Below the pieces are notes generated by a model. That model saw nothing but the letters and a program-made list of their open reading frames with translations, made no database searches and was not told the origin of the DNA. A DNA stretch of 64,000 nucleotides from an uncultured virus (IMG/VR IMGVR_UViG_3300009110_000302) (lineage: Duplodnaviria; Heunggongvirae; Uroviricota; Caudoviricetes): the IMG/VR virus record IMGVR_UViG_3300009110_000302, positions 1 to 64,000 of that record; one strand, given 5' to 3'. Positions 8,101 to 62,207 of this stretch are shown here, in pieces; positions within the stretch are counted from its first letter, which is position 1; each line of letters opens with the position of its first letter. Both the position numbers and the translations under genes were made by a program.

Positions 8101-9878
8101 CTAAATACGTAGAGCAAAGAGGAGCAACATACAAACATAAATTTACTGATTATCGTATAGCTCCTGATAGTTCTTCGATCGGCTCCGTAGCGGGTCAAGG
8201 CTGTGTAGGAAAAGGTTCCAGTAACGTAGTTAATAACAATACAGGAGGAAGGTATTGCACCACTTCTGCTATAGCTAAAGACGTTAACGATTTGGTAGCC
8301 TTAACCAAGCCTATTGCGACAGACTTTATTGAAACTGCGGGTGGCTTAATGCATGACGAGGGTGCCTTAGGACTGGGATACTTAGATCCGAATGGACACG
8401 GAGACGGCTTGTCGGCCGGATCAAAGATAGTAAGACAGCCTACCGAAAACGATTGGTCTAATTTTGTAGCAGTACAACAACAGATCGGGCAAACCGCCGT
8501 GCTGAATTACCCAATGGACGAAGCGCTAAGATTTATGGGCGCACCGTATTATTGTTTCCCAGACTTTACTGCAGAATACATGACCAGTAGCCTTAGTCTT
8601 TTTGAGAAATTTATTCCTCTTTACGGACACGTAAGCTGGCTCTTTGATAAAGATAACCTAGATAATTTAACTAAACAAGAAAAGCAGAATAAGGCTTGGT
8701 TTTATAATTACGTTAGAAACGATATAGACGCGTCAGCGCTCTTATTCCGCATAAAGATGACTCCTTGGAGGAACATGGCTTTAGATGTTTTAATAAGTTA
8801 TTGGCAAGGCAAAATACACGAAACAGATTTGGTTTGGCACCTTAATAAGAGACTTTTCCCGTTGATATATACCATGAACAAAACTTCTCCCATATTTATA
8901 CCTAAAGCACAGGAAACAGCTTTCCTAGGCAGTAAGTATCTGGGTCTTCGTTTCTTTCTTTCAGAAATACCAAATGTCGTAAAGGGCGGGTATCGTACAA
9001 GTGCTCATGATACTCATTGCCCTCGTCAAGGGATTTCGTGGAGTTATTTCCAAGGATCTCGGTGGTCTGGCAATAGGTGGAAAAATCAGGGCTTACGAAA
9101 AGAGAACTTTGCTAGGCAAGAAGGGCGAGTAGTCATAGAGGACGATTTAATATATATGCATAGGAATAATGTTTTAGCGTTATTGTTTGGGGTTGGGAAT
9201 GTTGAGCAATTCATCAAGGAAGGCAGAAGGGCGAACAGAATTGAAGATCACATATATAACTGGTGTTCGGCTAGTTATGCTCTATTTAGAATGCAAGTAA
9301 ATGCTGATGAGTCTATTTATGCAGGCTACAATGCAAATAATCCAAATTCTACAGTTAATGTTAAGCCAGAGGAACATCAGCACCCTATCGAAGTTGGACT
9401 TATTAACGCTATGACAAGATCTTTTCATGATGGCTCCACCGACCCACTTGGCGGCGCTTTGTCTAGTTGTTTTCAAAGGCCTTTTGGAAGGGATAGATAT
9501 AACGTTTTTCATCCACGTAATCCGGGCAGTGTGTTTACCAGCAGTGGCTTTGCTACGTATAAAAGCAAATACGGCAACGACCTTCATTTTCATAATATAT
9601 TTTATTCAGGAGAAAAAATAAGAAGGACGACGCCCGCAAATTGGAGGATCCAAGATAATGATAAAAAGATCGAGACAATTTATGGTTTTCCCAATAACAG
9701 AAGCGAAGATTGGGTGGAATATCAGTTCAGGGGCAACGGAGCGATGACTACATATATAGGAGATCCTCAAAGGATTGCTGTCCCCACGGACGCTTCTCAT
9801 TCCGGAATTACGACCTTGCCTCCGAAAACCGCGGAGGAGATCGGAAAAATTAGTCGGAAAACGGGTCAAAAAAAATAA
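2124..9878 (+). CDS. Giant 2584-aa protein of unknown function, possibly structural or ejected
   Basis: Uninterrupted 7.7-kb ORF with no catalytic motif I recognise; it follows a probable virion gene. Confidence 0.6.
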   Translation: MSVQFSGTTVEKVGAAVALRFIIAVAGGYAYKESKTPKLGGNTTALDNYNQKYPKDKIITSSFTKFYKSLDIKLSGAEYEGKNVHMAPTERTDNTTKLVIGNKSKLDQLGEWLVNDHKKDIEITQDQGGQKTVFKTTGVSDGDVKFYIGLEVCSYSPQLGANGNIKNGKNHKSMTSPATGFGTYSVKSYSRKAKVQICMDFWKCKSSDAGLKKMGFTGSDGVYISDDYFKLTTALEKKIGTDVFMYTHTEDDGSGTLKPKAVGFCKAMISEFCAVLKDAADIGDDEDPSEFKQLVEGTNVGQIGGADLKCPTKEDKAETSKCVISAKYKQPIYDKLVEHMTASGFTTILPGSFKPCSVVRNTNAGGNNYQYEFFGYEITGEYAKISTIASESVKIWEIGGDAPGGKIRLLPIVPKSLKKDPKTGAYSYDTVKNLAFATTVKDLERLNKDFAEEEYKFTAEIYANLIRETTYQMAEVWHQTAQLTLNDPREEKDHINAKIIKDKIYDNGGQEHDAFLQGTKLDMKGFLFNSFSTFIGNAGIKFGTNKVKFQSDIVARELTEDAEGNTESGEPFTWTATSSITIEDLMSFIKSDDGEDKVLLDPETGKPIIDPETGKEKRGRVMSKSAFKDKLQINLPTVKDGAYDIDDISFSYDFTWWNNWKFTLDVDKDVKSWEDVGLKGVWDIEDGKELTISKTAGGNKYGLDMSWRIDATNPETYNQKGLQNIISILDKAVVKSGICFDADTGEVEFTAGMSKKLAEGINASISLTDANITADFDKKYKYGRYGQLDIGFTGGFGKSFDLFNKGAKEKETDGGDNLGGENVYDTGYYDANLNLDFNVNLFRVANNLGRIVFDVSAATSLTQASGVVRGISLTSVIQWKLTYQNNICSTLLGLPANVHPHIGGTIGFTMQDVESSYWGTKYSGYKMTIGTGLFGISIVEHSRKDVIEDIIERKRYGKLQFFGAGLLEVFDFFGWVTDEETDEDYIARAWPCLVYNVINWQREDYDKQLQDDVKTLKQRVDLSGCEILKSTPGVGKSFQDFYQEQYGACYPCLGEVADAFYNGGSHYQLQRYGLEPGSYKQSVLMGPNSTGAAAGEPSDRWYHWTKIDILSGAIGGKAYFDTRPGLVDTGERRPEVKIPLSAKTGDWINQNGVILSGKLVRQVRGFNSFWGCPIIAGETKCQNPLDGFPNMPADGSMWGSSYAGGNTGFLNSACFAFMYMMREIIEFRAPLGYCDKKNTSDCEPCESLIEKWKLNEIRTGQTNAIKLGIQGSLIQKKELLADELDGLTKERSISNTLFEAFSTKLFKNDDVRGKGAANVRGFTFDTMKYLEGGDDHYPRNSLYQETIDRETGKVKMVGWMPKGPNGEPWLDSIHEVTNFDGSTRRMKMLSAHAVEMAIKQRKNPTREDEEENSEESALINLHTDPVWGLVKCYFTYMAPLGPAERTKVVEDGVYPEGHPEAGSKKYKVEEDPLFLLPYNPNTPEAIAKRKEIRARNASLSSGLEAFEQQDDGDYILYNNDNIPNGPDGKPLFADPGQWPTIRDKFGNLSVEVYKDYRAGWVYRRRNPDGTVGEIEWVVPCVQAYKHTHKIGKVGKLGKVFDAVIKLASSGRNHAVTDVCGFHKNDRAGWRRVVGWFGGIWNFIKNLFVGSSQQFYRNLPWVYLDNKNYVANINEGEVPRIIPLNLNRGKFRYFPKGAEEDESELPSPQTMMLEGVQHGLYRDSDRISYQECPWKGNPASSYLDFYEFMEYVQRDALQYFFPEILGMVTSEDINRFCITKENSIKIFGYFPNSIILIGCKKCDTCTTRAPVDGASVPWPEAVGLRSMLGPHDNPSTDLTVTLDKSLGYIAKRTWPAWQNLQFSETSTFVFEESSTEEQKLEERQTKTFDSLRDKYDFIMKRLNYLNAFSDSSAKVFGDSSVTMPFPEKKEFWYPNYTAENRVKFVYEKGESISSIGEQASLVGILTDYSSTKLSEYNPNLKSIQFDFELIASDPKYVEQRGATYKHKFTDYRIAPDSSSIGSVAGQGCVGKGSSNVVNNNTGGRYCTTSAIAKDVNDLVALTKPIATDFIETAGGLMHDEGALGLGYLDPNGHGDGLSAGSKIVRQPTENDWSNFVAVQQQIGQTAVLNYPMDEALRFMGAPYYCFPDFTAEYMTSSLSLFEKFIPLYGHVSWLFDKDNLDNLTKQEKQNKAWFYNYVRNDIDASALLFRIKMTPWRNMALDVLISYWQGKIHETDLVWHLNKRLFPLIYTMNKTSPIFIPKAQETAFLGSKYLGLRFFLSEIPNVVKGGYRTSAHDTHCPRQGISWSYFQGSRWSGNRWKNQGLRKENFARQEGRVVIEDDLIYMHRNNVLALLFGVGNVEQFIKEGRRANRIEDHIYNWCSASYALFRMQVNADESIYAGYNANNPNSTVNVKPEEHQHPIEVGLINAMTRSFHDGSTDPLGGALSSCFQRPFGRDRYNVFHPRNPGSVFTSSGFATYKSKYGNDLHFHNIFYSGEKIRRTTPANWRIQDNDKKIETIYGFPNNRSEDWVEYQFRGNGAMTTYIGDPQRIAVPTDASHSGITTLPPKTAEEIGKISRKTGQKK
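3922..3968 (+). repeat. Short coding duplication (DPETGK twice, 27-bp period)
   Basis: tcgacc(c)(t/c)gaaacagggaaa at 3922-3941 and 3949-3968. Confidence 0.7.
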
Positions 9879-24167: not shown

Positions 24168-25130
24168 ATGTTTGATATGAAAAGATTTTCAGTAGTCGCC
24201 ATCGGTCTCAGCCTTATTATTTCTCAAGTAGTGGGCGCTGAGAAAAAAACTACTACAGCAGATCATCTTCAAAATGTTTCTGTTACTATTCGCTCAGAAG
24301 GAGAATATTCTAATGGGGAAGGTTCTGGGGTGATTTTTACCAGAAAAGACTCTAAAGGTAATCAGGTCAATTTCGTGTGGACTGCAGGGCACGTTATAGA
24401 CAATCTTCGAAAGACTAGAAAGACAGTAGTCAATGGCACGCCCAAAACTATCGTAGAGTTTAAAGATCCGATGGTAGTCAAAGAGATTCGACAAAACGGC
24501 AGGACTGTTGGTAGGCTTCAAATGGATGCGGAAGTATTGAAGTACTCAGATGCTACTGACGGTCATGACCTTGCCTTACTAAGGGTTCGTAAGTTCAATT
24601 TTGTCACCGATTCGGTGACATTCTATTTAGACAAAGAGATCCCAAAACTGGGGGAAGATTTACTTCATGTTGGGAGCTTATTGGGTCAGATGGGCGCGAA
24701 TAGTATGACTGATGGAATTTATTCTCAGCATGGGAGAATTTTGAAGAGTTTAAATAAGCATATCTTCGACCAAACTACTGTCACAGCTTTTCCGGGGTCT
24801 TCGGGTGGAGGCGTATACTTGAAAACAGATGCTCGTTATATCGGGATGCTTGTTCGCGGAGCGGGGGAAGGGTTTAACCTTATCGTACCTGTTCGTAGGA
24901 TGCAAGAGTATTGCGAAAGACATAAAATGACATGGGCTTTAGATAGAAATGTACCCATGCCCACAGAAGAAGAGTTGAAGAAGATGCCTATCGAACACGA
25001 GCCTAAAGATAAGGAAGAAGAGGACGGTGCTGAAGATGATCCAGACGCAAAAGAGACTAATAAAATGTTTCCATTTAGATTGAGGGTGACGTATCCAAAA
25101 GTGATTATTCTTCATTCTAAGACGGAATAA
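24168..25130 (+). CDS. Secreted trypsin-like serine protease
   Basis: Signal peptide; GSGV, TAGHV, DLALL and PGSSGGG triad motifs. Confidence 0.88.
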   Translation: MFDMKRFSVVAIGLSLIISQVVGAEKKTTTADHLQNVSVTIRSEGEYSNGEGSGVIFTRKDSKGNQVNFVWTAGHVIDNLRKTRKTVVNGTPKTIVEFKDPMVVKEIRQNGRTVGRLQMDAEVLKYSDATDGHDLALLRVRKFNFVTDSVTFYLDKEIPKLGEDLLHVGSLLGQMGANSMTDGIYSQHGRILKSLNKHIFDQTTVTAFPGSSGGGVYLKTDARYIGMLVRGAGEGFNLIVPVRRMQEYCERHKMTWALDRNVPMPTEEELKKMPIEHEPKDKEEEDGAEDDPDAKETNKMFPFRLRVTYPKVIILHSKTE

Positions 25131-37579: not shown

Positions 37580-38137
37580 ATGAGGTTAGATCATATAGCT
37601 TACAGATCTAAAGATCGTAATAAGACCGCAGAATTCTTCGCGGACACCCTTGGTTATACAATAGGCACAGAGTTTCAGGTAAAGTTTGATGACGGAGGGA
37701 AAGCCGACTGTTTAGCCTTAGTTCCGCCAGAGAATAGAACTGAAGAAACTAACCTCTGGAGACTCGAGACCTATCTCTCCATGAACGAAATTGAAACGGA
37801 AAGTCCCGTAGAATATCATGCTCCACCTGAAATTTTTGTTAGTGACGGCCCTGAAGGGAGTATTGTGGGTGATTGGGTTGCCGATCGCGGTGGCGTTGGC
37901 GGTATTCATCACATCGCTTATCAAGTGGAAGATGTGGAAAGAACAATGAAGGAGTGGAAGGGCAAGGGGTATGCTGAATTTTATTCAGAAGAACCTATGA
38001 CTTGTCCCGGCCTTACTCAAGTTTTTACAAAACCATCCGAATTAACAGGAGTTATTTATGAGCTTATATCTAGAGAAGGTAAAGGGTTTTGCGAGCTTAA
38101 TGTTAAAGGACTTATGCAAAGCACTAAAGGAGAGTAA
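37580..38137 (+). CDS. VOC/glyoxalase-fold metalloenzyme resembling the HPPD C-terminal domain
   Basis: LDHIAY, GIHHIAYQV, QVFT, YELISR..GF...NV..LM.ST; His/His/Glu triad. Confidence 0.75.
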   Translation: MRLDHIAYRSKDRNKTAEFFADTLGYTIGTEFQVKFDDGGKADCLALVPPENRTEETNLWRLETYLSMNEIETESPVEYHAPPEIFVSDGPEGSIVGDWVADRGGVGGIHHIAYQVEDVERTMKEWKGKGYAEFYSEEPMTCPGLTQVFTKPSELTGVIYELISREGKGFCELNVKGLMQSTKGE

Positions 38138-38138
38138 C

Positions 38139-39668
38139 ATGAGAGATTTCGAAGGTAGAAATTACATAAACGGAGAGTGGCGAGCTACTTCCGAAATGTA
38201 TACAAAAATTAATCCGTCAACGGGTAAAGCTCAAGGGGCGTTTCCGTCAAGCGGCCCAAGTGAAGTTTCTAAAGCTGTACTGTCTGCGAGAAAAGCTTTT
38301 AAAAAATGGAGAAAGGTTAGCAGGTTTGTTCGTTCTGATTATATGAACAAGGTCGCTCAAATTATTGAAAGAGATAAAGAAAAGTTGGCTAAAATCATAT
38401 CTTTAGAAACGGGTAAAAATTATAATGAAAGCATCGCAGAGGTTAATGAGGCTTTGCATATGGCTCAATTTGCTTTCGGCTCTGGTCGTTATAGCCATGG
38501 AGAGGCAGTATCTTCAGAGATTGAAGATAAAGATGCTTACATGCTTAGGAAGCCTAAAGGTGTAATAGCTATCGTAACTCCTTTCAACTTTCCTCTGGCA
38601 ATAGGTATGTTTTGGAACGCTGCACCAGCATTGGTGGAAGGAAATACAATAGTAATTAAACCAAGTGAAGATGCTCCGATGTCAACTCAAGCGGCTGTTC
38701 AAATTTATGCGGAAGCTGGTATCCCACGTGGAGTCATTAATTTGGTGCATGGTGACGGTACTACTGGCAACCTTTTGGTTCATGATGATGTTGATCATAT
38801 TTGTTTTACTGGTAGTGCCGATGTCGGACAGCATATTCGTAAAGTGGCTGCAGAGTCTTGGCATAAGACTACCTCTTGTGAACTAGGCAGCAAATCTGCT
38901 TGCATCATTTTTGATGACGTTGAATTTAAATTAAGCATGGAGGCTGCGATCGCAAGCGCTTTTAAATTATCAGGGCAACGGTGTGTCTCTTCTGGTAGAA
39001 TGATAGTGCAAAGAACTATCTATAGCGAGTTCGCAAAAAGATTTGCGGAGGAGGCGGCAAAATTAAAGACAGGGAATCCATTCAAGTCCATGCTTGGCAC
39101 CTCAGGCTGCCCAGATGGTATGGTTTGGGAAGAGCTTGTGGCTGACGAAGACGTTTATTATGGTCCGATTATAAATGAGCAAGGGTTTTCTAAAATTAGG
39201 AGCATGAATAAAATGGTTATAGATGACCCAGAAGCCGAAGTCCTTTTAGCTCCAGCTTACACCGGAGACCATAAATCTTATTACTCTACCCCAATGGTAT
39301 ATAAAACCGAGTGGAGAGACGTAAAGTATTTAAAAAATGAGGTGTTTGGTCCTCACGTGGCGATTATCCCTTTTGATACGATGGAAGATGCGATTCGTAT
39401 TTATAACGATACAGATTACGGTCTTGCGGTTGGGATTTTAACTAACGATTTTAGAAAAGCGAGAGTTATGAGGGACGAATGTGACGCAGGTATGATCTAT
39501 TGGAATGGCGGGTCAATCGCAGCGGAATCTCACTTAGCTTTTGGAGGAGTTAAGAAGTCCGGAAACGGATTCCCAAGCGCGGCCAGAACTTTTAGAGCAG
39601 TTACTCATGAAATAAGCTGGACTGTGAACCATGCAGATGCTCTAACTTTTCCTCAGGGGATGAAGTGA
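38139..39668 (+). CDS. NAD-dependent aldehyde dehydrogenase
   Basis: TPFNFP, KPSE, FTGS, ELGSK, SGQRC, EVFGP, FGGVKKSG. Start at 38139 after AAGGAG. Confidence 0.93.
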   Translation: MRDFEGRNYINGEWRATSEMYTKINPSTGKAQGAFPSSGPSEVSKAVLSARKAFKKWRKVSRFVRSDYMNKVAQIIERDKEKLAKIISLETGKNYNESIAEVNEALHMAQFAFGSGRYSHGEAVSSEIEDKDAYMLRKPKGVIAIVTPFNFPLAIGMFWNAAPALVEGNTIVIKPSEDAPMSTQAAVQIYAEAGIPRGVINLVHGDGTTGNLLVHDDVDHICFTGSADVGQHIRKVAAESWHKTTSCELGSKSACIIFDDVEFKLSMEAAIASAFKLSGQRCVSSGRMIVQRTIYSEFAKRFAEEAAKLKTGNPFKSMLGTSGCPDGMVWEELVADEDVYYGPIINEQGFSKIRSMNKMVIDDPEAEVLLAPAYTGDHKSYYSTPMVYKTEWRDVKYLKNEVFGPHVAIIPFDTMEDAIRIYNDTDYGLAVGILTNDFRKARVMRDECDAGMIYWNGGSIAAESHLAFGGVKKSGNGFPSAARTFRAVTHEISWTVNHADALTFPQGMK

Positions 39669-40114
39669 TGAATGGAAAGGGAGATAAACCAAGACCTATG
39701 AATTTCAAAAGGTATCATCAAAATTATGATGCTATTTTTAGTAAAAAAAAAGGAAAGAAAATGGAATTCCATATAGCGACAAAAGGAACGAAAGAGGATC
39801 AAAAACCTGTCGTCCTCGTAGACATTGACGAAACTATTTGTTTTTACTCTGGTAATCGTAGATACGACCTAGCTGAACCGAGTAAAGAAAACATCGGCAA
39901 AATAAACAAGATGTATGACGAAGGGTGGAAAGTTATATATTGGACAGCTAGAGGTTCCGTATCAAAAAAAGATTATTATCAATACACTTGGGATCAGTTG
40001 GAGTCTTGGGGCTGTAAGTTCCATGACTTATCTACAGGTACAGGAGGAACACACCCAAAACCTAATTATGATTTAGTTATTGACGATAAAGCAAAAAGAA
40101 TAGAGGAAATATAA
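39665..40114 (+). CDS. Small HAD phosphatase with an N-terminal GKGDKPRP peptide
   Basis: VDIDETIC, WTARG, KP.YD..IDDKA. Confidence 0.8.
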   Translation: MMNGKGDKPRPMNFKRYHQNYDAIFSKKKGKKMEFHIATKGTKEDQKPVVLVDIDETICFYSGNRRYDLAEPSKENIGKINKMYDEGWKVIYWTARGSVSKKDYYQYTWDQLESWGCKFHDLSTGTGGTHPKPNYDLVIDDKAKRIEEI

Positions 40115-40116
40115 TT

Positions 40117-40221
40117 ATGGCTAACAAAGAAAAGAGAAAAAAAGAAAAAAAGAAACCTGCTAAAAAGACACCAGCGGAAAAAAGAAAAGAGAAGAGAGAA
40201 AAGAAAAGAAGAGGCAAGTAA
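40117..40221 (+). CDS. 34-aa very basic peptide
   Basis: MANKEKRKKEKKKPAKKTPAEKRKEKREKKRRGK fills the gap between its neighbours. Confidence 0.6.
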   Translation: MANKEKRKKEKKKPAKKTPAEKRKEKREKKRRGK

Positions 40222-41316
40222 ATGAGAGCTTATGTTCTAGGAGTCGGCAGGATGGGAACAGCCATTGCTTGGGCGATGGATAAATTAGGTTTTGAAGTGA
40301 CAGGTATGGACACTAACCCTGACGCCGCAAACAATATGACAGGCTCTTTTTTTGTTGTTGATGACGCGGATGATATTTGTAAAGGCATCGTAGCAAACGG
40401 TCCAAGGCCAGACATTGTTATTAGCAGCTTGCCTTACCACCAAACGGAAGTGGTAGGCAAGTGGTGCGTAGATAACGAAGTACGCTATTGCGACTTAGGC
40501 GGCAGAGTAGATGTCTCGAAAAATATTAATGATCACGCCGAGCAGTTTGCGACTCGACCAGTTTTCACAGATTTAGGCTTAGCTCCCGGCTGGGTAAATA
40601 TATTAGCCGAAGAGGGATGCAGGAAATTCCATGGCTCTGCTGAAGAAGTTAAAATGATGGTCGGGGGCTTACCCGACTATTTAGAGAGCTCGAATAATCC
40701 ATTGCGTTACGCACTTACTTGGTCTGTTGATGGATTGATCAATGAATATAGAGACGATTGCCTTATCCTTGAAGACGGAGAAGTAAAAACTGTAAAAGGA
40801 ATGTCTGGGGTAGAACAGATAGAGGGCGAAAAGTTTGGACCCATGGAGGCTTTTTATACAAGTGGTGGCGCGTCACATTCAATTCACGACATGCAACGAA
40901 GAGGAGTTAAGAATTGCTCCTATAAAACCATAAGGTACAGGGGTCATGGAGATATGGTTAGATTTTTGATTAGAGATTGCGATCTAGACGATGGAGCGTT
41001 AACTAAAATTTTCCGAGAAGGTTGCGGTACGGTAGATAAAGACGAGGTGTTTATCGTAGCAGAAGTGAAGGGCGGGGATAAAACTTGGAGACAGGAGAAG
41101 GTGATCAAATCTGACGAACAATTTTCAGCCATGCAAAAAGCTACGGCGTTTTCCATTTCCTCTGTAGCAGCGATTATGGCTCAAGGAAAGCTAGAGGGGA
41201 ACATGGAACAGCGTAGAGACTATTGGACTCAGTACCCAGCGGCCTTATCTTATGATAATGTGCCTTTTAATGAATTTAATAATAACTTAGAAAGATTATT
41301 GACTAGTGCTTTATAA
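40222..41316 (+). CDS. Saccharopine dehydrogenase / lysine 6-dehydrogenase family
   Basis: GVGRMG, YCDLGG, GLAPGW.N, GGLP, WSVDGLINEY, YKTIRY.GH. Confidence 0.88.
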   Translation: MRAYVLGVGRMGTAIAWAMDKLGFEVTGMDTNPDAANNMTGSFFVVDDADDICKGIVANGPRPDIVISSLPYHQTEVVGKWCVDNEVRYCDLGGRVDVSKNINDHAEQFATRPVFTDLGLAPGWVNILAEEGCRKFHGSAEEVKMMVGGLPDYLESSNNPLRYALTWSVDGLINEYRDDCLILEDGEVKTVKGMSGVEQIEGEKFGPMEAFYTSGGASHSIHDMQRRGVKNCSYKTIRYRGHGDMVRFLIRDCDLDDGALTKIFREGCGTVDKDEVFIVAEVKGGDKTWRQEKVIKSDEQFSAMQKATAFSISSVAAIMAQGKLEGNMEQRRDYWTQYPAALSYDNVPFNEFNNNLERLLTSAL

Positions 41317-46618: not shown

Positions 46619-46807
46619 ATGCCGTTGTCTCACAAGGAATTTATTGAAGCTTTAACAGAGATAGAACAGGAATACATAAAATTAAGAAGTAGTGACTCTT
46701 CACACGAAAGAAGAACAGCCCAATTAGCTTTGCTTGTTTTAAATAGACTGAAGAGAAGAATAACAAAGAAGATAATTGAGAAACATGGAAATCAAACTAA
46801 AACATAA
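46619..46807 (+). CDS. Small hypothetical protein
   Basis: ORF with GTGTAA 11 nt upstream. Confidence 0.5.
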
Positions 46808-46997
46808 AGACGGCAGATCAATGCCTCTCGAAAGAGCTTTGAGAATTCTTAAGAAGAAGCTTGATAAAGAGGGCACTATTAAAGAGGTTAGAAAACGTAG
46901 ATTTTACGAGAAGAAAAGCGTTAAAAAATACAGGAAAAAGAAAAACGCTAAATATGCCGCTAAGATGCAAGCTAAAGAAAACGAACTTTGGCGTTGA
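46785..46997 (+). CDS. rpsU: Ribosomal protein bS21
   Basis: [33 protein letters not shown] matches the bS21 pattern. Start placed at 46785. Confidence 0.88.
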
Positions 46998-47718: not shown

Positions 47719-48125
47719 TGAAAACGGGTTTCGTAGCTAGTTGTTTTGATATGCTTCATGCGGGACATTGTCTTATGTTAAAAGACGCGTCTTTTCAATG
47801 TGATCATTTAGTAGCAGCACTTCAGACAGATCCGACAATAGATCGTCCGGAAAAAAATAGGCCAATACAGTCTTTCCCAGAAAGAATGCTTCAGCTTGAA
47901 GCCGTCCGTTATATTGATGAAATTGTTGTTTACAATACTGAAGAAGAATTAGTTGAGTGGCTAAAAGTGATTAAGCCAGATGTCCGTATTCTGGGTAGTG
48001 ACTACAAAGATAAGTTTTATTATACGGGCAAAGATTTAGAAGAGCACTTAGGTATAGAGATATATTTTCATGATAGAAATTATCATTGGTCTACCAGCGA
48101 GTTAAGGGAAAGGGTATTAAAGTGA
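47718..48125 (+). CDS. Glycerol-3-phosphate cytidylyltransferase-like protein (TagD family)
   Basis: [31 protein letters not shown]. Confidence 0.88.
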
Positions 48126-49282
48126 GAATTGAGCCTGAAATGAAGTTAGATTATAAGGACGTTCTTTTGCGTCCTAAGCGTTCAGAGTTAACGTCTCGTA
48201 AGGACGTTAATTTGATGCGTGAGTTTACCTTTAAGAACGCTGGAGGGGAAGGGTCAGACCCTAAAGCGTATAGCTGGAAGGGCATCCCTATTGTGGCGGC
48301 AAATATGGATACCGTGGGGACTTTTGAAACGGCCAAGGCTCTTGCCCAACATCATATGTTGACTTGTATCAGTAAGCATAGTGATGTAGATAGGTGGATT
48401 CATAAGCTGTGTGGCTATGGGGTTTACAAAACCAAAGAGCAAAAGAAAGCTAATGAAGGAAGCTGGAAATATGAACGAGGAGCAAAGGATTGGCAAAGCA
48501 GAATTTATGACCATATTTGTCCTTCTATCGGTATTAAATATGATCCAAATAAAATGGATGATATAGATTATTTAAACAGTATTCAGTGGAACTTTTATCA
48601 TAATAGGTTCGTATGTATTGATGCAGCGAATGGATATACATCAAGGTTTTGTGATTTTATTAAACGAGTCAGAGAAGAACACCCCGCTCTTATTATCATA
48701 GCGGGAAATGTTGTCACTGGCGAAATGACAGAGGAGATATTATTAAGTGGAGCAGATATTGTTAAAGTGGGTATTGGCGGCGGGTCTGTTTGCACTACTC
48801 GTATACAAACTGGTGTGGGTTATCCTCAACTCAGCGCAGTCATTGAATGCGCGGATGCTGCTCATGGGATTGGTGGGCATATTATGGCTGACGGTGGGTG
48901 TGTATCTGCTGGCGACGTGGCCAAAGCCTTTTGTGCTGGTGCTGATTTTGTTATGCTGGGCGGGATGTTGGCGGGTCATACTGAATCAGAAGGGCAAGAG
49001 GAAGAAGTAGACGGAGAGAAATATAAAACATTTTATGGAATGAGTTCCGACACGGCCATGAACAAATATCATGGCGGAGTTGCGAACTATCGCTCCTCAG
49101 AAGGAAAAACAATAAGGATAAAACATCGTGGACTTATTAAGCATACTGTGGAACATATTCTTGGTGGCTTGCGTAGTGCTTGTACTTATATTGGTGCTAA
49201 GGAGTTAAAAGATATGCCTAAGTGCGCTACCTTTATAAGAGTTAGTCAGCAATCAAACGAAGTGTTTGGAAAAAATATTTAA
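48122..49282 (+). CDS. guaC: GMP reductase
   Basis: [63 protein letters not shown] start at 48122. Confidence 0.93.
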
Positions 49283-49900: not shown

Positions 49901-49945
49901 TAAAATAAATTATATTTAATTTTTAATAAAACTATAATAAATAGT

Positions 49946-50437
49946 ATGAATACTTTCACTAAATGGTTCTTATTAAATGCTGTTATGTTGACAGCCATTT
50001 TTTTTGCACAGCAAAGAGACTTAATCTCAACAATGATAGAGGGGGATTTATCCCATATTTCAGTGCTTATAATGATTTTATACATACTGATGTCCGCTTT
50101 CGTGGGTAGGCTTTGCTATTTATCTGATAAAATAAGTAAAGATAGTAAGATTAAAAGAGTTAAAGAGAAAGACTACTTAACTAAACGAGCAGATGTAGGT
50201 TGGTTTGCGGCAGAGCATTTCTTCTCTTTGGGCCTTTTGGGGACTATTATTGGGCTTATATTAGCTACACAGGGGAGTCTTGATAGCTCCACACCCACAA
50301 GTGAAATAGTGGCGGGGTTGAAGAAGGGTCTGAACACGGCGTTTTATACGACAGTGTGCGGTATAGTTTTCAGTTTACCTCTTCAGGTTCAGCTTATGAT
50401 ATTAAAGTTTAAGTTGGAGAAAAAAGAAGATGCGTAG
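49946..50437 (+). CDS. MotA/TolQ/ExbB proton-channel family protein
   Basis: Several TM segments; LGLLGTIIGL and GLNTAFYTTVCG. TATAAT lies 7 nt before the ATG. Confidence 0.85.
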   Translation: MNTFTKWFLLNAVMLTAIFFAQQRDLISTMIEGDLSHISVLIMILYILMSAFVGRLCYLSDKISKDSKIKRVKEKDYLTKRADVGWFAAEHFFSLGLLGTIIGLILATQGSLDSSTPTSEIVAGLKKGLNTAFYTTVCGIVFSLPLQVQLMILKFKLEKKEDA

Positions 50438-51020
50438 ATTTTTTTCATTTCGGCCATTTATTGACGTTTTATTTTGCTGCTTACTCATGTTAGTAGCGAT
50501 ACTTTTCTTATTGAAAACCGAAGAGGAGAAAACTAAAATGCGCCCACCAAATGTCATCTATGAAGTTGTTTTAACTTGGGATGGTAAAAGCGGTGACGAT
50601 TTAGACCTATACGTTCAGGCGGCTTCAGGACACGTCGTAAGCTTCAATAATAGAGAAGGGGGTAGCGGCAGTTTAATTAGCTTAGATCATGATGCTCTTG
50701 GCTTAAGGAACAATAGTCTCGGAGAAGGACAAGAGGGGCAGATTACGCCCTTTCATGAAGAAGTGGTATCTTTCAGGGGAGTTCTTGAGGGAGAGAACGT
50801 AGTGACTATTCATGTCTACGCAAAAAGGGACGACGAACCAATAAAAGCTACTATTAAATTAATTAGGGTTAAGCCTTTTAAAGAAGTCGTTACGAAAGAA
50901 ATAGTATTTGAATCCGTAGGGCAAGAAAAAACCGCCTTTAGATTTAAGACAAGTAAGACCGCAGAGGTCATAGACATTAACGAGTTACCTGCTAAATTGG
51001 TTAGGTCTTTAGGACAATGA
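50430..51020 (+). CDS. ExbD/TolR-like single-TM protein with a YfaP-like soluble domain
   Basis: PFIDVLF..LL TM with the conserved Asp, then LTWD...DDLDLYV...G..V.F...LD.D...E.V; overlaps the ExbB-like gene. Confidence 0.65.
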   Translation: MRRFFSFRPFIDVLFCCLLMLVAILFLLKTEEEKTKMRPPNVIYEVVLTWDGKSGDDLDLYVQAASGHVVSFNNREGGSGSLISLDHDALGLRNNSLGEGQEGQITPFHEEVVSFRGVLEGENVVTIHVYAKRDDEPIKATIKLIRVKPFKEVVTKEIVFESVGQEKTAFRFKTSKTAEVIDINELPAKLVRSLGQ

Positions 51021-51139
51021 AAAAACTAGAAAAAACCAAGGATTTGTTTTTATTAGCTTTTTGGGGCACCGCTTATCTCTTAAAAGCTATAGTTGAGATT
51101 CCTTACTTGTGGATCAAATCGTTATTTGATAAAAAATGA
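51017..51139 (+). CDS. 40-aa membrane peptide
   Basis: MKKLEKTKDLFLLAFWGTAYLLKAIVEIPYLWIKSLFDKK; ATGA overlaps at both ends. Confidence 0.55.
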   Translation: MKKLEKTKDLFLLAFWGTAYLLKAIVEIPYLWIKSLFDKK

Positions 51140-53939: not shown

Positions 53940-54233
53940 ATGAAAACAGATAAAAAATACAAAGGAATACCCCTTAACGACGACACCCTTGAAGAAGTCA
54001 TGACTAGTGATTTTCCGAGAGTTTATATACATGACGTGAAAGATAACCCAGACGACACCTGCTCTATGGAAATTTCTACCAATAAAGCTTTTGACGAACT
54101 CTTTAAGAAAGAAAAAAATCGTAAGCGAGTTAGCAATAAAGGAATACGGGAGTTTTTTATAGAGCTACTCGAAAAGGGCATAGCTAAAGAAGATGGGTAC
54201 GATTTAAAAAAGGCAAGTGAACTTTACAAATAG
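53940..54233 (+). CDS. Hypothetical protein
   Basis: ORF from the track. Confidence 0.55.
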   Translation: MKTDKKYKGIPLNDDTLEEVMTSDFPRVYIHDVKDNPDDTCSMEISTNKAFDELFKKEKNRKRVSNKGIREFFIELLEKGIAKEDGYDLKKASELYK

Positions 54234-54248
54234 ACGGATAAATATAAA

Positions 54249-54836
54249 ATGAATATAGCATTACCAGTTTTATTATTAGTATTTGGTGGATTAAGCTTTT
54301 GGGTACTGAATGAGTCGAAGCTCAAGTGGTATTTTAAAACTATTTGCATAAGTACTTTCTGCGTTTTTACCATCGTGTTTTGGTCTTCTATTCACACTTT
54401 CTTAGGTTGGCCAGCTTTAGAGAAAGACGTTCCCGATAAGGTTCTTCTGCATTGGGTGATAATCAAAGAGCCGAATAAAATTACAGAGTTTAAAGGCAGG
54501 ATTTATTTTCTAGTAGAGTCTGGTAAATATTCTGCGCCAGACCCGCTTGCTAAATTTTTTGGCTACAAGAAAGAGGATGTAGAGCCTCGTTTATACGGGG
54601 TGAAATATAACAGACAACTGCATGAACGTTTAGAGAAAGGCATAATACCTAAATTAAAAAAAGGTCAGCCTGTTTTAGGAAGATTGTCTAAAGCTGAGCG
54701 AAAAGAAGGAGGGGTGGGAAAAAACGGAGAAAATAAACAAGAAAATGAAGAAGGAGATGGAAGTGAGTCTCAGGAGCAAGATTGGCAATTTCACGAGTTG
54801 AGACCTTCCGATATACAGGGAAAACCAACAGACTAA
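54249..54836 (+). CDS. Membrane protein with 2 TM segments and a soluble domain
   Basis: Two hydrophobic N-terminal segments, LGWP, IKEP, EPRLY. Confidence 0.65.
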   Translation: MNIALPVLLLVFGGLSFWVLNESKLKWYFKTICISTFCVFTIVFWSSIHTFLGWPALEKDVPDKVLLHWVIIKEPNKITEFKGRIYFLVESGKYSAPDPLAKFFGYKKEDVEPRLYGVKYNRQLHERLEKGIIPKLKKGQPVLGRLSKAERKEGGVGKNGENKQENEEGDGSESQEQDWQFHELRPSDIQGKPTD

Positions 54837-56310: not shown

Positions 56311-58149
56311 ATGTGTGGAATAATTGGATACATTGGAGAGGAGAAAGCCTCAGATAAGATATATTCGGGATTAGAAAAATTAGAATATAGAGGTTACGAT
56401 TCTTGCGGCGTTGCGGTATTTAATAAAAATACTAATGAATTAGCTTGTTCCTACCACCTCTCTGCGCCTAGTGAAATCGAATCTTATAACGCTTTACCTG
56501 AATCTTTTTGCGGCATAGGTCATACAAGATGGGCGACACACGGCGCGGTCACCTTAACTAATACTCATCCTCATAAAAGCTGTGACGACACCGTATACCT
56601 TGTCCATAATGGGGTTATAGAAAATGCTGATCAAATAAAGAAGGGGCTAGAAAACGAGGAGTGTGAATTTTATAGCGAGACAGACACAGAAGCTCTCGTT
56701 AATTTAATTGCATTTTGTTATAACGACTCTAGCGATAAAGAGCCCGTTTTAGCAATTAACCAAGCTTTGAAAGAGGTCGAAGGGACTTACGGTCTTGCTA
56801 TTATGTTTAAAGATCACCCTAGCGTCATCTTTGCGGTTAGAAGAAGCTCTCCTTTAGTGTTGGGACTCAAAGAGGAAGAAACTTATATCTCTAGCGATAC
56901 GAACGCTTTGCCTTCTGATACGGAGAAGGTTGTATATTTGGAAGATGGAGACGTAGCGGAGGTTAAAAAAGACAGCTTTAAGATTTATGATAGAAATAGC
57001 AAACAATACGATAGTAGGCGCACCGCTATAAAAATAAAAATACCAAAAAGACACCATCAGCTTGGGAGTTACGAAACATTTTTAGAAAAAGAGATTTATG
57101 AGCAACCAGACTCGATAAGGGAGACAACGAGAGGTCGGTTCAATAAGGATTTTGATTCTGTGATTTTAGGGGGCATAGATACCGAAAGGGACATTAAGAG
57201 GGTTCTGTTTATAGGTTGCGGCACCGCTTACCACGCTGGCCTTTTGGGTAAATACTTTATAGAAAACATAGCTAAGGTTCCCGCTAGTGTAGAGATCGCT
57301 TCAGAGTATAAATATAAGAATAACCCCACGGAAGACGGGACTCTTGTGGTTGTGATAAGCCAGTCTGGTGAAACCATAGATACTCTAGCGGCACTGAAGG
57401 AGGCTCAAGATAGGGGGCTTGATACAATAGCTATAACAAATACCGTCATGAGCAGTATAGCTCGTCAGGTTGAGGAGGGAATCTACCAACGTGTCGGCCC
57501 TGAGGTTTCAGTGGCTTCAACTAAGGCTTTTACGTCTCAAATAACTCTAGCTTTGATGCTGGCTATTTTAATTGGGCGTAAGAATGGGATGAGTTTATTG
57601 GAGTCAAAAAGGATGATTGGGTATTTAAGGAGGTTACCGAGCTTGATAGATCAAACTTTAAGTATGACCAAAGAAAAGGCGCGTAAGCTTGCGGTTGGAC
57701 ATTCTTTATTAAAAGAGATGACCTTTTTGGGTAGGCAGTATATGTACCCAATAGCTTTAGAAGCGGCGTTAAAAACGAGAGAGCTTGCCTATGTAAATAC
57801 TATCGGTTATACGTCTGGAGAAATGAAACACGGGCCGTTAGCCTCTATAAGTAGCCATTCTTTTGTTTGGGTTTTAGCTCCCCAAGAAGGATTGAAAGAA
57901 AAAAATATAACGACGATTAAAGAACTTAGCTCTAGAGGGGTAAACCATATAACCGTGGTAAAGCAGGAGGGGCAAGATTTCCCAAAAGATTGTCATGATA
58001 ATTTTATAAATATACCTAAAGCTCCAGAGTTTCTTTTACCCGTGTTGGCGACTATCCCCATCCAGTTGTTTGCTTTAGAGATGGCCAAAGTCAGAAATTT
58101 AAATGTAGACAAGCCGAGGCATTTAGCGAAATCTGTTACAGTAGAATGA
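56311..58149 (+). CDS. glmS: Glutamine-fructose-6-phosphate aminotransferase
   Basis: MCGIIG, EYRGYDS, GHTRWATHG, HNG.IEN, SQSGET.DT, VASTKAFT, DKPRHLAKSVTVE. Confidence 0.96.
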   Translation: MCGIIGYIGEEKASDKIYSGLEKLEYRGYDSCGVAVFNKNTNELACSYHLSAPSEIESYNALPESFCGIGHTRWATHGAVTLTNTHPHKSCDDTVYLVHNGVIENADQIKKGLENEECEFYSETDTEALVNLIAFCYNDSSDKEPVLAINQALKEVEGTYGLAIMFKDHPSVIFAVRRSSPLVLGLKEEETYISSDTNALPSDTEKVVYLEDGDVAEVKKDSFKIYDRNSKQYDSRRTAIKIKIPKRHHQLGSYETFLEKEIYEQPDSIRETTRGRFNKDFDSVILGGIDTERDIKRVLFIGCGTAYHAGLLGKYFIENIAKVPASVEIASEYKYKNNPTEDGTLVVVISQSGETIDTLAALKEAQDRGLDTIAITNTVMSSIARQVEEGIYQRVGPEVSVASTKAFTSQITLALMLAILIGRKNGMSLLESKRMIGYLRRLPSLIDQTLSMTKEKARKLAVGHSLLKEMTFLGRQYMYPIALEAALKTRELAYVNTIGYTSGEMKHGPLASISSHSFVWVLAPQEGLKEKNITTIKELSSRGVNHITVVKQEGQDFPKDCHDNFINIPKAPEFLLPVLATIPIQLFALEMAKVRNLNVDKPRHLAKSVTVE

Positions 58150-58990: not shown

Positions 58991-59184
58991 AAAACACAAA
59001 AAAGAGAATGCACCGAACGTCAGACCCGACTTGGCATACCTACACATATAGTGGAGAGACAAAAAGCCCATTTGACATAGAAATGATTAAATATTATAAT
59101 GAATCCGAAGGCAGGGATCAAATATTGTTCCTTTATAAAGATAAAACCGATGGGAAAATTTTTAAATATAGAATATTACAGTGA
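58987..59184 (+). CDS. Small hypothetical protein
   Basis: Start at 58987 with ATGA overlap. Confidence 0.45.
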   Translation: MKNTKKRMHRTSDPTWHTYTYSGETKSPFDIEMIKYYNESEGRDQILFLYKDKTDGKIFKYRILQ

Positions 59185-60284
59185 TCGATGAAGATAAAAA
59201 AATACTTAATGACTTTTTTGAGTCCTTGGTAGTAGGAAAGGAGACTTTTATAGGTTATCCCGTTAATACCCTTTTCGATTATTCTGAATTATTTAAATTT
59301 TTATCTATACCCCTGAACAACGTAGGCGACCCCTTTTGTTCTAGTTATTATGGCCTCGATTCAAGACTGATGGAAAGAGAGGTGTTGGATTGGTTTGCCA
59401 AACTCCACAACGCTCCATTAGATAATTATTGGGGTTACGTTACAAATGGAGGTACGGAAGGTAATATGTATGGTCTTTATCTCGCTAGGGAACTGTATCC
59501 CAAAGGGGTTGTTTATTATTCGCAAGACACGCATTATAGCGTGAGTAAAAATATTCGTATGTTAAACATGGAACACGTTATGATAAAGTCTCGTCGTAGC
59601 GGAGAAATGGATTACCAAGATTTACATGAAATGATTTCAACTTGGCGTTCGGCTCCTCCTGTTATTTTCGCTAACGTGGGGACAACAATGAGAGAGGGTT
59701 TCGATGATATAAATGAAATAAAAAAAGTTTTAAGAGCTTTAGCCATCCCAGAGTATTATATTCATGCGGATGCGGCATTAGGAGGAATGACATTACCATT
59801 TATAGAAAATTCCCCTGCTTTTGATTTTACGACAGGCGTACAAAGTATGTCTATTAGTGGTCATAAATTTATAGGCTCTCCTTTGCCGTGCGGAGTTGTT
59901 TTAGCTTTAAAAAGTAATGTAGGTAGAGTAGCGAGGGCGGTAGAGTATGTAGGGTCTTTGGATAGCACGGTTAGTGGCTCTAGAAATGGCTTTACTCCCA
60001 TACTTTTATGGTACGCGATAAAGAAATTTGGATTTAATGGCTTCAAGAAAATGGTTAGAGGTTGCGTCAGAACAGCAGAATTAGCCGTTAGAAAGATGAA
60101 CGACAGCAATATAAAGGCTTGGAAAAACGACTATGCTATAACGGTAGTTTTCCCTAGACCCGCTGAAAATGTGGTAAAAAAGTGGAAATTAGCGGTACAA
60201 GACGATATTGCTCATATTATTTGTATGCCTCAAGTTAATGGGGATGTAATTAATAATGTAATAAAAGACATAAGAGAAAGGTGA
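59181..60284 (+). CDS. PLP-dependent histidine decarboxylase-like protein (HdcA/serine decarboxylase group)
   Basis: GYP, NNVGDPF, WGYVTNGGTEGN, DTHYSV, GEMDY.DL, HADAALGG, SGHK, SGSRNG. Confidence 0.85.
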   Translation: MIDEDKKILNDFFESLVVGKETFIGYPVNTLFDYSELFKFLSIPLNNVGDPFCSSYYGLDSRLMEREVLDWFAKLHNAPLDNYWGYVTNGGTEGNMYGLYLARELYPKGVVYYSQDTHYSVSKNIRMLNMEHVMIKSRRSGEMDYQDLHEMISTWRSAPPVIFANVGTTMREGFDDINEIKKVLRALAIPEYYIHADAALGGMTLPFIENSPAFDFTTGVQSMSISGHKFIGSPLPCGVVLALKSNVGRVARAVEYVGSLDSTVSGSRNGFTPILLWYAIKKFGFNGFKKMVRGCVRTAELAVRKMNDSNIKAWKNDYAITVVFPRPAENVVKKWKLAVQDDIAHIICMPQVNGDVINNVIKDIRER

Positions 60285-60290
60285 TGTTTT

Positions 60291-60455
60291 ATGGAAGAAA
60301 AATGGGTGGCAATTGTTTATAATGGAGGAGACAAAGTAGGTTCTCGAATCTTTGAGGGCGAGGAGTCACAAACCCGACCAGAAGCGAGGCGTTGGGTCAT
60401 CTCCCAATTTGGTGAGGGTACGGACTGGTCTTTTCATCATGTAATAGAGCGTTAA
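60291..60455 (+). CDS. Small hypothetical protein, 54 aa
   Basis: Gap-filling ORF MEEKWVAIVY... Confidence 0.45.
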   Translation: MEEKWVAIVYNGGDKVGSRIFEGEESQTRPEARRWVISQFGEGTDWSFHHVIER

Positions 60456-60469
60456 TTGGAATATGAAGA

Positions 60470-61312
60470 ATGAATTTTTTATATCCATTAGCGAAAAGGT
60501 TTATTGCTGGCTATGATTTGGAATCTGCCAGAGATAATATTCAACGCCTAATGGATGAAGGCTACGAGGTTTCAATAGATTACGTCGGTGAGAATAGTAA
60601 AAGTCAGGAGGACTGTTTGAAAGCTTTTAAGCAGTATGTCAAAATTATAAAATTTTATAAAAATAAAAAAATAAACATCTCCATTAAGCCTTCTCAATTA
60701 GGAATAAACATCCACCCAATACTTTCTTATTCTCACATTTCCAAATTAGCTGAACTAGCTAAAAAACATAACCATACAATCCGTTTAGATATGGAAGATT
60801 CAAAAGTTACAGAGCTTACGAGGAATCTTGCTGTTTGTTTAAATAGGAGGTTTGGAAATGTGGGAGTAGCGATACAAGCTAATTTACATAGAAGTAATAA
60901 AGACATTGATAATCTAATAAAGGAAGGGGTTTCTGTTCGTTTAGTTAAGGGGGCATATAAAGAAAATGAGAAAGTAGCTTATCAAAATTATTTTGATATA
61001 ACTGGCTCTTTTTTTGATTATGCTGCTAGGTTGTATTCAAGAAAGGCAAATAAACCAGCACTCGCCACCCATGATGAAGAGTTGTTAGGGGATGTAGAGG
61101 AACTTATACCCCATCCTGATTATTTTGAATATGAGTTTCTTTATGGAGTTCGTAGAGATTTACAAAAAAGCTTGAAAGATAAAGGGTATACGGTTAGAGT
61201 ATATATACCATTTGGAAAGAATTGGCTACCTTATACGTTGAGGAGACTTAAAGAGTGGAAGAACTTAAAGTTTGTAATAAAAAATATACTGTATGAGATA
61301 TTTAAGCGATGA
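60470..61312 (+). CDS. Monofunctional proline dehydrogenase
   Basis: RFIAG, SIKPSQLG, LDMED, VRLVKGAY, ATHD, EFLYG, RVYIPFG...Y..RRL.E. Confidence 0.9.
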   Translation: MNFLYPLAKRFIAGYDLESARDNIQRLMDEGYEVSIDYVGENSKSQEDCLKAFKQYVKIIKFYKNKKINISIKPSQLGINIHPILSYSHISKLAELAKKHNHTIRLDMEDSKVTELTRNLAVCLNRRFGNVGVAIQANLHRSNKDIDNLIKEGVSVRLVKGAYKENEKVAYQNYFDITGSFFDYAARLYSRKANKPALATHDEELLGDVEELIPHPDYFEYEFLYGVRRDLQKSLKDKGYTVRVYIPFGKNWLPYTLRRLKEWKNLKFVIKNILYEIFKR

Positions 61313-62207
61313 AGAAGTTTCCGGCTTATTGGAAAATAAATGGAGTCAAATAATAAACTCTATCGAATCTGCTTTTCTTGACCCATCTGTAGACATGGTT
61401 CCTAAAATTTACCTTAAGGGTGAAGGTGGAGATTTTAGAGCTATGCCAGCGGCACTTGGCAAATATGCGGCTATCAAGTGGATTGGAGTGTTCCCAGACA
61501 ACTATCAGATTCCAATACCCACAACGAATGGTTCGCTTATTTTGAGTGACAGGGAAACAGGAGTGCCTCTAATGGGTATGGACTGTACCACTCTTACAGC
61601 ATATAGAACTGCGGCTACTTCAGCGATAGCCGCCAAGTATTGCTCTCCTGAAGCTGAGAACTTTGCGATCATAGGTTGTGGGTTACAAGCCAAATATCAT
61701 ATTGAGGCTTATGAAACTATCTTTAGTCACATGAAGATGGATGTTGAGCTTTACGATAAAAATGAAAAAATACAAAAGGATGTATTTAATTGGTTAGGTA
61801 GCGAAAATCTTTGTAGGGCTTGGGGCAGAAATAAATCAGTAAAGGAAGCGGTTAAATATGCAGACGTTATTACTACTCTTACACCATCTACATCACCTTA
61901 TTTGGACATCCATGATGTTAAAAGTGATTGTCATATCAACGCTGTCGGTGCGGATGCAGTCGGGAAAAGAGAATTGATGACTAACATCATTGATGGGTCA
62001 TCGTTTATTGTCTGTGACGATGAAGAACAAGCTTTGCATTCTGGAGAGCTACAATATAACACATGGCCGAACTTACAACCGCAGTCTATTAATTCTCTAA
62101 TTAAGAACAAAAAAATCCCAAATAAAGGAGTATCAGTGTTTGATTCCACGGGAGTAGCTATTGAAGATGTAGCTATCGCAGCATTAATCTACAAATTATC
62201 GGAGTAA
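61293..62207 (+). CDS. Ornithine cyclodeaminase / mu-crystallin family protein
   Basis: TAYRTAATSA, IIGCGLQA..H, HINAVGAD..GKRE, FDSTG.AIED. Confidence 0.9.
   Translation: MRYLSDEEVSGLLENKWSQIINSIESAFLDPSVDMVPKIYLKGEGGDFRAMPAALGKYAAIKWIGVFPDNYQIPIPTTNGSLILSDRETGVPLMGMDCTTLTAYRTAATSAIAAKYCSPEAENFAIIGCGLQAKYHIEAYETIFSHMKMDVELYDKNEKIQKDVFNWLGSENLCRAWGRNKSVKEAVKYADVITTLTPSTSPYLDIHDVKSDCHINAVGADAVGKRELMTNIIDGSSFIVCDDEEQALHSGELQYNTWPNLQPQSINSLIKNKKIPNKGVSVFDSTGVAIEDVAIAALIYKLSE

Follow-up and report, generated by a model that had tools for sequence, protein, structure and literature searches.

A three-gene module with a MotA/TolQ/ExbB-family subunit is shared by phages and bacteria

The DNA analysed here (the window) comprises the first 64 kb of a linear 117.5-kb virus record that is 69% complete. 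Its genes include those for a large terminase, PhoH, a tubulin-like protein, a DNA polymerase, ribosomal protein S21 and sigma factors, a set that marks it as a large tailed phage. Genes for ribosomal protein S21, a GMP reductase/IMPDH-family protein, a GlmS-like protein and a tubulin-like protein were present in one phage (window positions 46776-46997, 48086-49282 and 56311-58149; L202:3731-4891). Amino-acid catabolism-type genes were located at 37580-41316 and 59181-62207; this set included a glyoxalase-fold protein, an aldehyde dehydrogenase, a saccharopine dehydrogenase, a PLP decarboxylase, a proline dehydrogenase and an ornithine cyclodeaminase, and several of its members were found again in related phages. 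ORFs of 2584 and 620 amino acids (2124-9878 and 247-2109) just before the replication genes had no Pfam or PHROG match.

An overlapping gene pair had been described at this locus in a first-pass annotation, and the two ORFs, here termed A (49946-50437) and B (50430-51020), do overlap by 8 nt on the + strand. Gene A encodes a compact MotA/TolQ/ExbB-family subunit of 163 amino acids. Both motifs on which that earlier assignment relied were present (GLLGT..G at residues 96-103 and TAFYTT..G at 131-139), and the protein matched PF01618 above the curated cut-off (E 9.2e-8; 32.3 bits against 22.9). When aligned to MotA, TolQ, PomA and ZorA chains, the A profile placed its conserved motifs on the pore motifs of MotA, TolQ and PomA, with T100 and T136 falling on pore threonines of TolQ and PomA. 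In an alignment of 118 homologues, Thr100 (codon 50243-50245) was conserved in 117, Thr135 in 107 and Thr136 in all (codons 50348-50353), and G96, G99, G103 and G139 were, like T136, invariant. The same alignment contained four hydrophobic segments with a basic N-terminus, central loop and C-terminus, which points to a MotA-like, N-in four-helix topology. The cytoplasmic central loop averaged only 31 residues, so A lacks the torque domain of flagellar stators, and a cytoplasmic tail of ZorA type was absent.

The full threonine triad occurred in 31/31 distinct A proteins from close viral relatives and in 40/44, 56/67 and 27/28 of the other A rows. It was found in 38/68 metagenome rows and in one of eight cultured rhizobiophages, the other seven lacking at least one of the three residues. 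Five of eight ordinary PF01618 proteins from carrier genomes, used as controls, also had the triad; one further control did not align. In the available portion of PMC10374538, the corresponding threonines of PomA (T158/T185/T186) are the mark of Na+ stators, and in that of PMC11946911 their absence serves as a criterion for calling ZorAB proton-driven. Lysine replaced the first pore threonine (T100) in A of 26 metagenome loci (among L226-L273), a subgroup in which B keeps the aspartate described below. A salt bridge in the ion path is possible in this subgroup, and the lysine variants and the threonine losses of rhizobiophages would fit relaxed or altered ion use. Phage copies of A were shorter than most bacterial copies.

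Gene B encodes a protein of 196 amino acids with a single, predicted N-in helix, a stalk of about 15 residues and a head domain. As reported in the first-pass annotation, the sequence PFIDVLF with its aspartate lies within the hydrophobic helix (Asp12, codon 50463-50465). Conservation of this residue had been named as a check on the motor assignment; Asp was found in 123/126 aligned homologues and in 273/279 locus-derived rows, the remainder being five gaps and one Ala. The soluble part had been called YfaP-like rather than ExbD- or OmpA-type, and profile comparison bore this out: hhalign gave 98.3% (E 1.5e-14, 115 columns) against ten DUF2135-bearing proteins, and the B profile recovered 11/13 DUF2135 loci at E < 0.002. 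PF09906 itself matched 1/126 members, and the B protein of the window fell below the Pfam cut-offs for DUF2135 and TerD. An ExbD/TolR match (PF02472, E 0.07) covered only residues 7-41, that is, the helix, and was seen weakly in 8/126 members. No OmpA-type domain was matched by Pfam in the window protein or among the 126 members, and vWA was absent from the 25 Pfam families listed for these members (38 matched in all).

The predicted structure of the B head was all-beta, a beta-sandwich with the TerD fold. No sequence membership in TerD (PF02342) was detected, with hhalign at 2.1% against 14 TerD proteins and no Pfam match, and the predicted likeness to TerD is one of fold only. W50, D57, D59, D88 and E111 were invariant in the head, which is acidic and, judging from its modelled shape, probably binds Ca2+.

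The A/B pair had also been considered promoter-led. A TATAAT element (49933-49938, + strand) does stand 7 nt before the ATG of A, and this agrees with a genome-wide pattern in which TATAAT occurred within 40 nt upstream of 14/133 + strand starts (3.6 expected); however, the -35 region matched at only 2/6 positions, a consensus scan did not list the site, and no single upstream motif was shared among relatives. A promoter, possibly leaderless, is therefore plausible at this position. Elsewhere in the record, TTGA(C/A)-spacer-TATAAT sequences were located about 8 nt before an ATG with no obvious ribosome-binding site (G000 65489, 72095, 83524, 84876 and others). Such start-proximal sites suggest leaderless transcripts. 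A second upstream motif, of GTGTAA type, also recurs in the phage genome.

A 40-aa hydrophobic ORF (51017-51139, + strand) overlaps the end of B by 4 nt and had been counted as a coupled membrane peptide. The ORF exists, and its hydrophobicity is moderate (best 19-residue window 1.71); it was detected, however, in only 5/298 loci, all close relatives, and directly followed B in two of them, one being the window's own virus. Among 26 whole related records it was found in seven, three of these weakly. The 40-aa ORF is a lineage-specific passenger that lies outside the module.

The locus had been read as a two-gene system, with the product starting at 54249 mentioned in passing as a possible partner. 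That product proved to be a genuine third member of a three-gene module. Gene C (54249-54836, + strand) lies 3.2 kb downstream of B in the window and was recognised through a seeded search, gene linkage and conservation. From its sequence, C is predicted to have an N-out pair of helices with a basic inner loop, a periplasmic domain and a flexible acidic/Gly tail, with a conserved motif at the C-terminus. Conserved residues of the periplasmic domain are GWP53-55, EP74-75, PR113-114, Y120 and H125. C had no match in Pfam, PHROG, NCBIfam, PADLOC or PDB and belongs to no known family. A weak likeness to the N-terminus of ComEC failed a direct test. A weak promoter-like sequence, TTTACA-16-TAAAAT (54223-54250, + strand), runs into the start of C and may allow independent expression of the separated gene; it is one of 22 sites listed by the scan, against 19.2 in shuffled sequences.

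Linkage of the three genes was assessed across viral and bacterial loci. Co-occurrence of A and B, another check that had been proposed, held in 33/33 close viral loci (a set that includes L001, identical to the window). A lay within 250 nt of B in 30/33 of these loci, in 44/44 bacterial loci and in 79/80 distant viral loci (the best 80 of 339 found). A search seeded with C alone against ORFs of 162 loci identified a relative in 126, rising to 145/162 after iteration. C followed B directly, within 150 nt, in 75/80 distant viral loci and was also directly after B in 42/44 bacterial loci. The trio was contiguous in 28/30 further loci from a class survey (L170-L199); in the other two, one of which sits at the end of its contig, no C was found at E 0.01. 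In the clade of the window, C adjoined B in 0/33 loci and was present in 21/33; the remaining 12 contigs stop 0.2-4.8 kb past B. C was found in 15/26 related records overall, including both that are at least 90% complete. Neighbour clustering and Pfam revealed no recurring fourth gene beside the trio.

Within the window's clade, pN/pS values of A, B and C were 0.27, 0.21 and 0.29, with synonymous sites saturated, and all three genes are under purifying selection. Coevolution analysis of 227 paired loci (Meff 145, 507 columns) gave a signal dominated by relatedness. Gene linkage suggests that C is probably a physical part of the same machine as A and B. One genome (G584, L337) carried two tandem C genes, and several others (G406, G502, G697 and G742) carried two full modules; in G406 and G697 the two belong to different subfamilies.

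Relatives of B numbered 979 among protein clusters at 50% identity, and 339 IMG/VR stretches matched. Among 50,697 annotated phage records, 29 matched B, all from Rhizobium or Sinorhizobium phages. The eight rhizobiophages examined, which included lytic myoviruses, 68-kb phages and temperate 16-3-like phages, had A, B and C in order, with one C below the stricter search threshold. In temperate phage 16-3 the trio corresponds to p038, p040 and p042, and lytic P10VF likewise carries it (P10VF_191-193).

Bacterial copies were surveyed in the same way. In the alphaproteobacterial-type class that contains a Geminicoccaceae MAG, 57/401 sampled genomes matched, 52 of them strongly (~13%). In the phylum to which a CPR MAG belongs, there were just 2/401 matches: the seed genome itself and a weak, partial one. 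The class survey samples include one unpublished genome, which was counted in tallies only. Further copies occurred in records titled Actinobacteria, Chloroflexota, Rokubacteria and Desulfobacterales and on Azospirillum replicons, among them a chromosomal trio in Azospirillum brasilense Sp7 (L167). Copies were retained in bacterial genomes of 1.1-1.5 Mb, and in five small, incomplete CPR-type genomes (0.6-1.1 Mb) A was the sole PF01618 match and no TonB_C was found; some other intact chromosomal copies coexist with ordinary PF01618 genes. FliG was present in 33/52 carriers and 226/349 other genomes (p 0.88). Bacterial copies were located among varied housekeeping genes, with neighbours that were stable within lineages, and Pfam named no receptor, TolB, Pal or defence gene among 104 scanned neighbours.

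In a quick tree built from 138 B proteins, eight changes of the viral label were required, at least five of them forced by well-supported branches. The clade of the window formed a long branch beside CPR-type and actinobacterial copies (support 92), although long branches can distort such a placement. The trio is a module common to phages and bacteria and not a viral invention. The system had been proposed to be an undescribed viral one: no description was found in the literature searched, but it is not specifically viral, as bacteria carry the trio among housekeeping genes.

Several associations with neighbouring genes were observed. A trypsin-like peptidase gene was located directly upstream of A in four temperate rhizobiophages (L163-L166) and near A in N3_13 (L035); the window also contains a Trypsin_2 gene (24168-25130), at a distance of 25 kb. 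A MamK/MreB-like actin gene was less than about 6 kb from the module in seven bacterial and six viral loci (L039-L044, L062, L114, L118, L133, L139, L142 and L158). In some marine-type genomes the module adjoined PQQ dehydrogenase or PQQ-cluster-type ABC transporter genes (L341-L343, L058), which may reflect lineage synteny only.

MotAB, ExbBD, TolQR and ZorAB constitute a superfamily of 5:2 ion-driven motors that serve flagella, uptake, outer-membrane upkeep and anti-phage defence. To our knowledge, all known 5:2 motors have been described from cells. The module shares sequence features of this superfamily: an A protein that matches PF01618 and has pore threonines in its last two helices, and an adjoining single-helix B with a conserved Asp. 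Family membership and residue conservation together make it likely that A and B form a motor core.

We compared the module with each known type. It resembles ExbB-ExbD-TonB and TolQ-TolR-TolA in its A-B-C gene order, in a PF01618 channel subunit with two pore threonines, in a single-helix partner with an essential-type Asp, and in a third, membrane-anchored protein with a periplasmic part. In contrast to Ton and Tol, A contains four hydrophobic segments and its loop is short, and the outer domain of B is a YfaP/TerD-type sandwich, not an ExbD/TolR domain. Unlike TonB and TolA, C has two helices followed immediately by its domain and lacks the SHLS histidine, the long linker and a TonB_C match; an S-x3-H sequence within the first 55 residues was seen in only 3/113 C proteins. 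No receptor, TolB or Pal gene was named among the neighbours scanned with Pfam, and the module occurs in small genomes in which TonB_C was not found and in Actinomycetota. The first-pass annotation had seen no TonB partner in the window, and this extends to the whole record, as TonB_C (PF03544) had no match in the 117.5-kb, 69%-complete sequence (G000).

With MotAB and PomAB the module shares the four-helix topology of A and, in the 31 distinct close viral proteins, the three-threonine pattern of PomA. It differs in that A lacks the FliG-binding cytoplasmic domain, B has neither plug nor OmpA domain, carriers show no association with FliG, and there is a third gene; the score of A against NCBIfam MotA was 20.7 bits (cut-off 380). 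Zorya ZorAB, too, is a 5:2-type pair unconnected with flagella whose role lies near phage infection, and there is a weak profile match over the pore helices: the best NCBIfam and PADLOC matches of A were to ZorA pore regions of profiles 383-1063 positions long, far below cut-off. In contrast to Zorya, the module is carried by phages and has no cytoplasmic tail, no peptidoglycan-binding domain and no visible ZorC/D/E-like genes, none of which recurred near it by neighbour clustering or Pfam. B had no match in PADLOC or NCBIfam, and C none in PADLOC (3/3 proteins each for PADLOC).

TPH-vWA motors also couple a TolQ-like gene to an Asp-helix protein with a non-ExbD periplasmic domain, as described in the available part of PMC12204202. 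They differ from the module in that its B domain is of YfaP/TerD type rather than vWA, each locus has one B instead of a heterologous pair, and gene C is present. That part of PMC12204202 (Williams-Jones et al. 2025) treats vWA-tipped variants only and mentions neither TerD, YfaP, DUF2135 nor phage-encoded copies. A survey of non-flagellar homologues (PMC12505986) notes diverse appended domains, and its accessible portion mentions neither phage-encoded copies nor this B domain. Relative to YfaP/DUF2135 and TerD proteins, the B domain is distinguished by its fusion to a motor-type helix. The module thus lies outside Ton, Tol, the flagellar stators, Zorya and TPH-vWA, whose defining features, where tested, it lacks. 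No published description of the module was found in the literature searched, which omitted most subscription papers, and the module is real and widespread and appears undescribed in that literature.

The reading we prefer, at about even confidence, is that the module is a self-contained, short-reach A5B2(+C) ion-driven envelope motor with an ordinary function that phages have borrowed. By analogy with MotAB, ExbBD, TolQR and ZorAB, five A subunits would ring two B helices, and H+ or Na+ would pass the A threonines on the way to Asp12 of B, turning the ring against the B pair. Either ion would be compatible with the residues seen, since the triad also occurs in ordinary PF01618 controls and is missing in most rhizobiophages. 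The lysine variants and the threonine losses noted above weigh against this mechanism. From its gene coupling, C would be a dedicated third subunit, its helix pair probably docking it on the outside of the ring, where TonB or TolA would sit. As C lacks the helix histidine motif of the TonB/TolA type, its docking mode is not given by that precedent. The linkers of B and C are too short to reach the outer membrane, so the B heads and the domain and tail of C would act near the inner membrane, on each other or on a target by its outer face. In bacteria the motor would perform an everyday envelope task, and the copy brought in by the phage would maintain or redirect this task in the infected cell.

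An alternative is superinfection exclusion or defence at the inner membrane, in which the trio would sense or block DNA entry by other phages, as Zorya does but without soluble effectors, with bacteria using it for defence and phages against competitors. The patchy spread (about 52/401 genomes in one class, one clear case in 401 in the CPR-type phylum), the repeated switching of the viral label on the B tree, the presence of the trio in temperate and lytic phages alike and the ZorA pore regions as best matches of A would agree with such a role. We nevertheless consider it unlikely, as bacterial copies lie in lineage-stable surroundings of housekeeping genes, the 104 neighbours scanned with Pfam included no recognisable defence system, neither B nor C matches a PADLOC model, and the module has no tail, nuclease or OmpA domain.

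Equally doubtful is a gated ion valve that exerts no force, in which the acidic B heads would sense Ca2+ or another periplasmic signal and C would gate the pore. Its output would be a change in membrane potential, which for a phage could set infection timing or the energy state of the host. The module offers no wall anchor, long linker or cytoplasmic torque domain to push against, its head combines five invariant acidic or aromatic residues with the shape of Ca2+-binding TerD, and pore variants such as the Thr-to-Lys change are tolerated. Against this, Ca2+ binding is suggested by shape only, the superfamily members described in the available part of PMC12204202 use the Thr/Asp site for mechanical work, and TPH-vWA motors in the same source are a precedent for an axle that bears its own output domain. 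Far less probable than either, and the least likely of the functions listed in the first-pass annotation, is that phage subunits enter and jam host Ton, Tol or Zorya motors, hiding receptors or disabling defence: the A pore helices are homologous to those of TolQ, ExbB and ZorA and phage A is shorter than most bacterial A, yet the trio is self-contained and kept together, its strongly conserved periplasmic domains would be needless for jamming, and intact chromosomal copies both coexist with ordinary PF01618 genes and occur in small genomes that showed no further MotA/ExbB gene.

A further, more far-reaching reading is put forward only tentatively and seems improbable to us at present. The module would be an ion-driven rotary motor encoded by phages, with Na+ as a possible coupling ion in marine lineages. 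Its Ca2+-type heads, together with C as a dedicated third subunit, would physically guard the outer face of the inner membrane, for instance by blocking DNA entry by competitors. If this were true, the module would be a fourth type of three-part 5:2 system, able to operate in the absence of an outer membrane, and the first member from a virus to have a function.

Two of the cultured phages that carry the trio, the classic temperate 16-3 and lytic P10VF, have harmless laboratory hosts and make the module accessible to direct test. It represents a distinct three-gene type of putative motor that is common in phages and also carried by an appreciable minority of bacteria, some of them with small genomes in which no other such motor was found. 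If the envelope-motor reading is true, phages equip the host envelope with energy-converting machines, and the output of such a motor would need neither a wall anchor nor an outer membrane.
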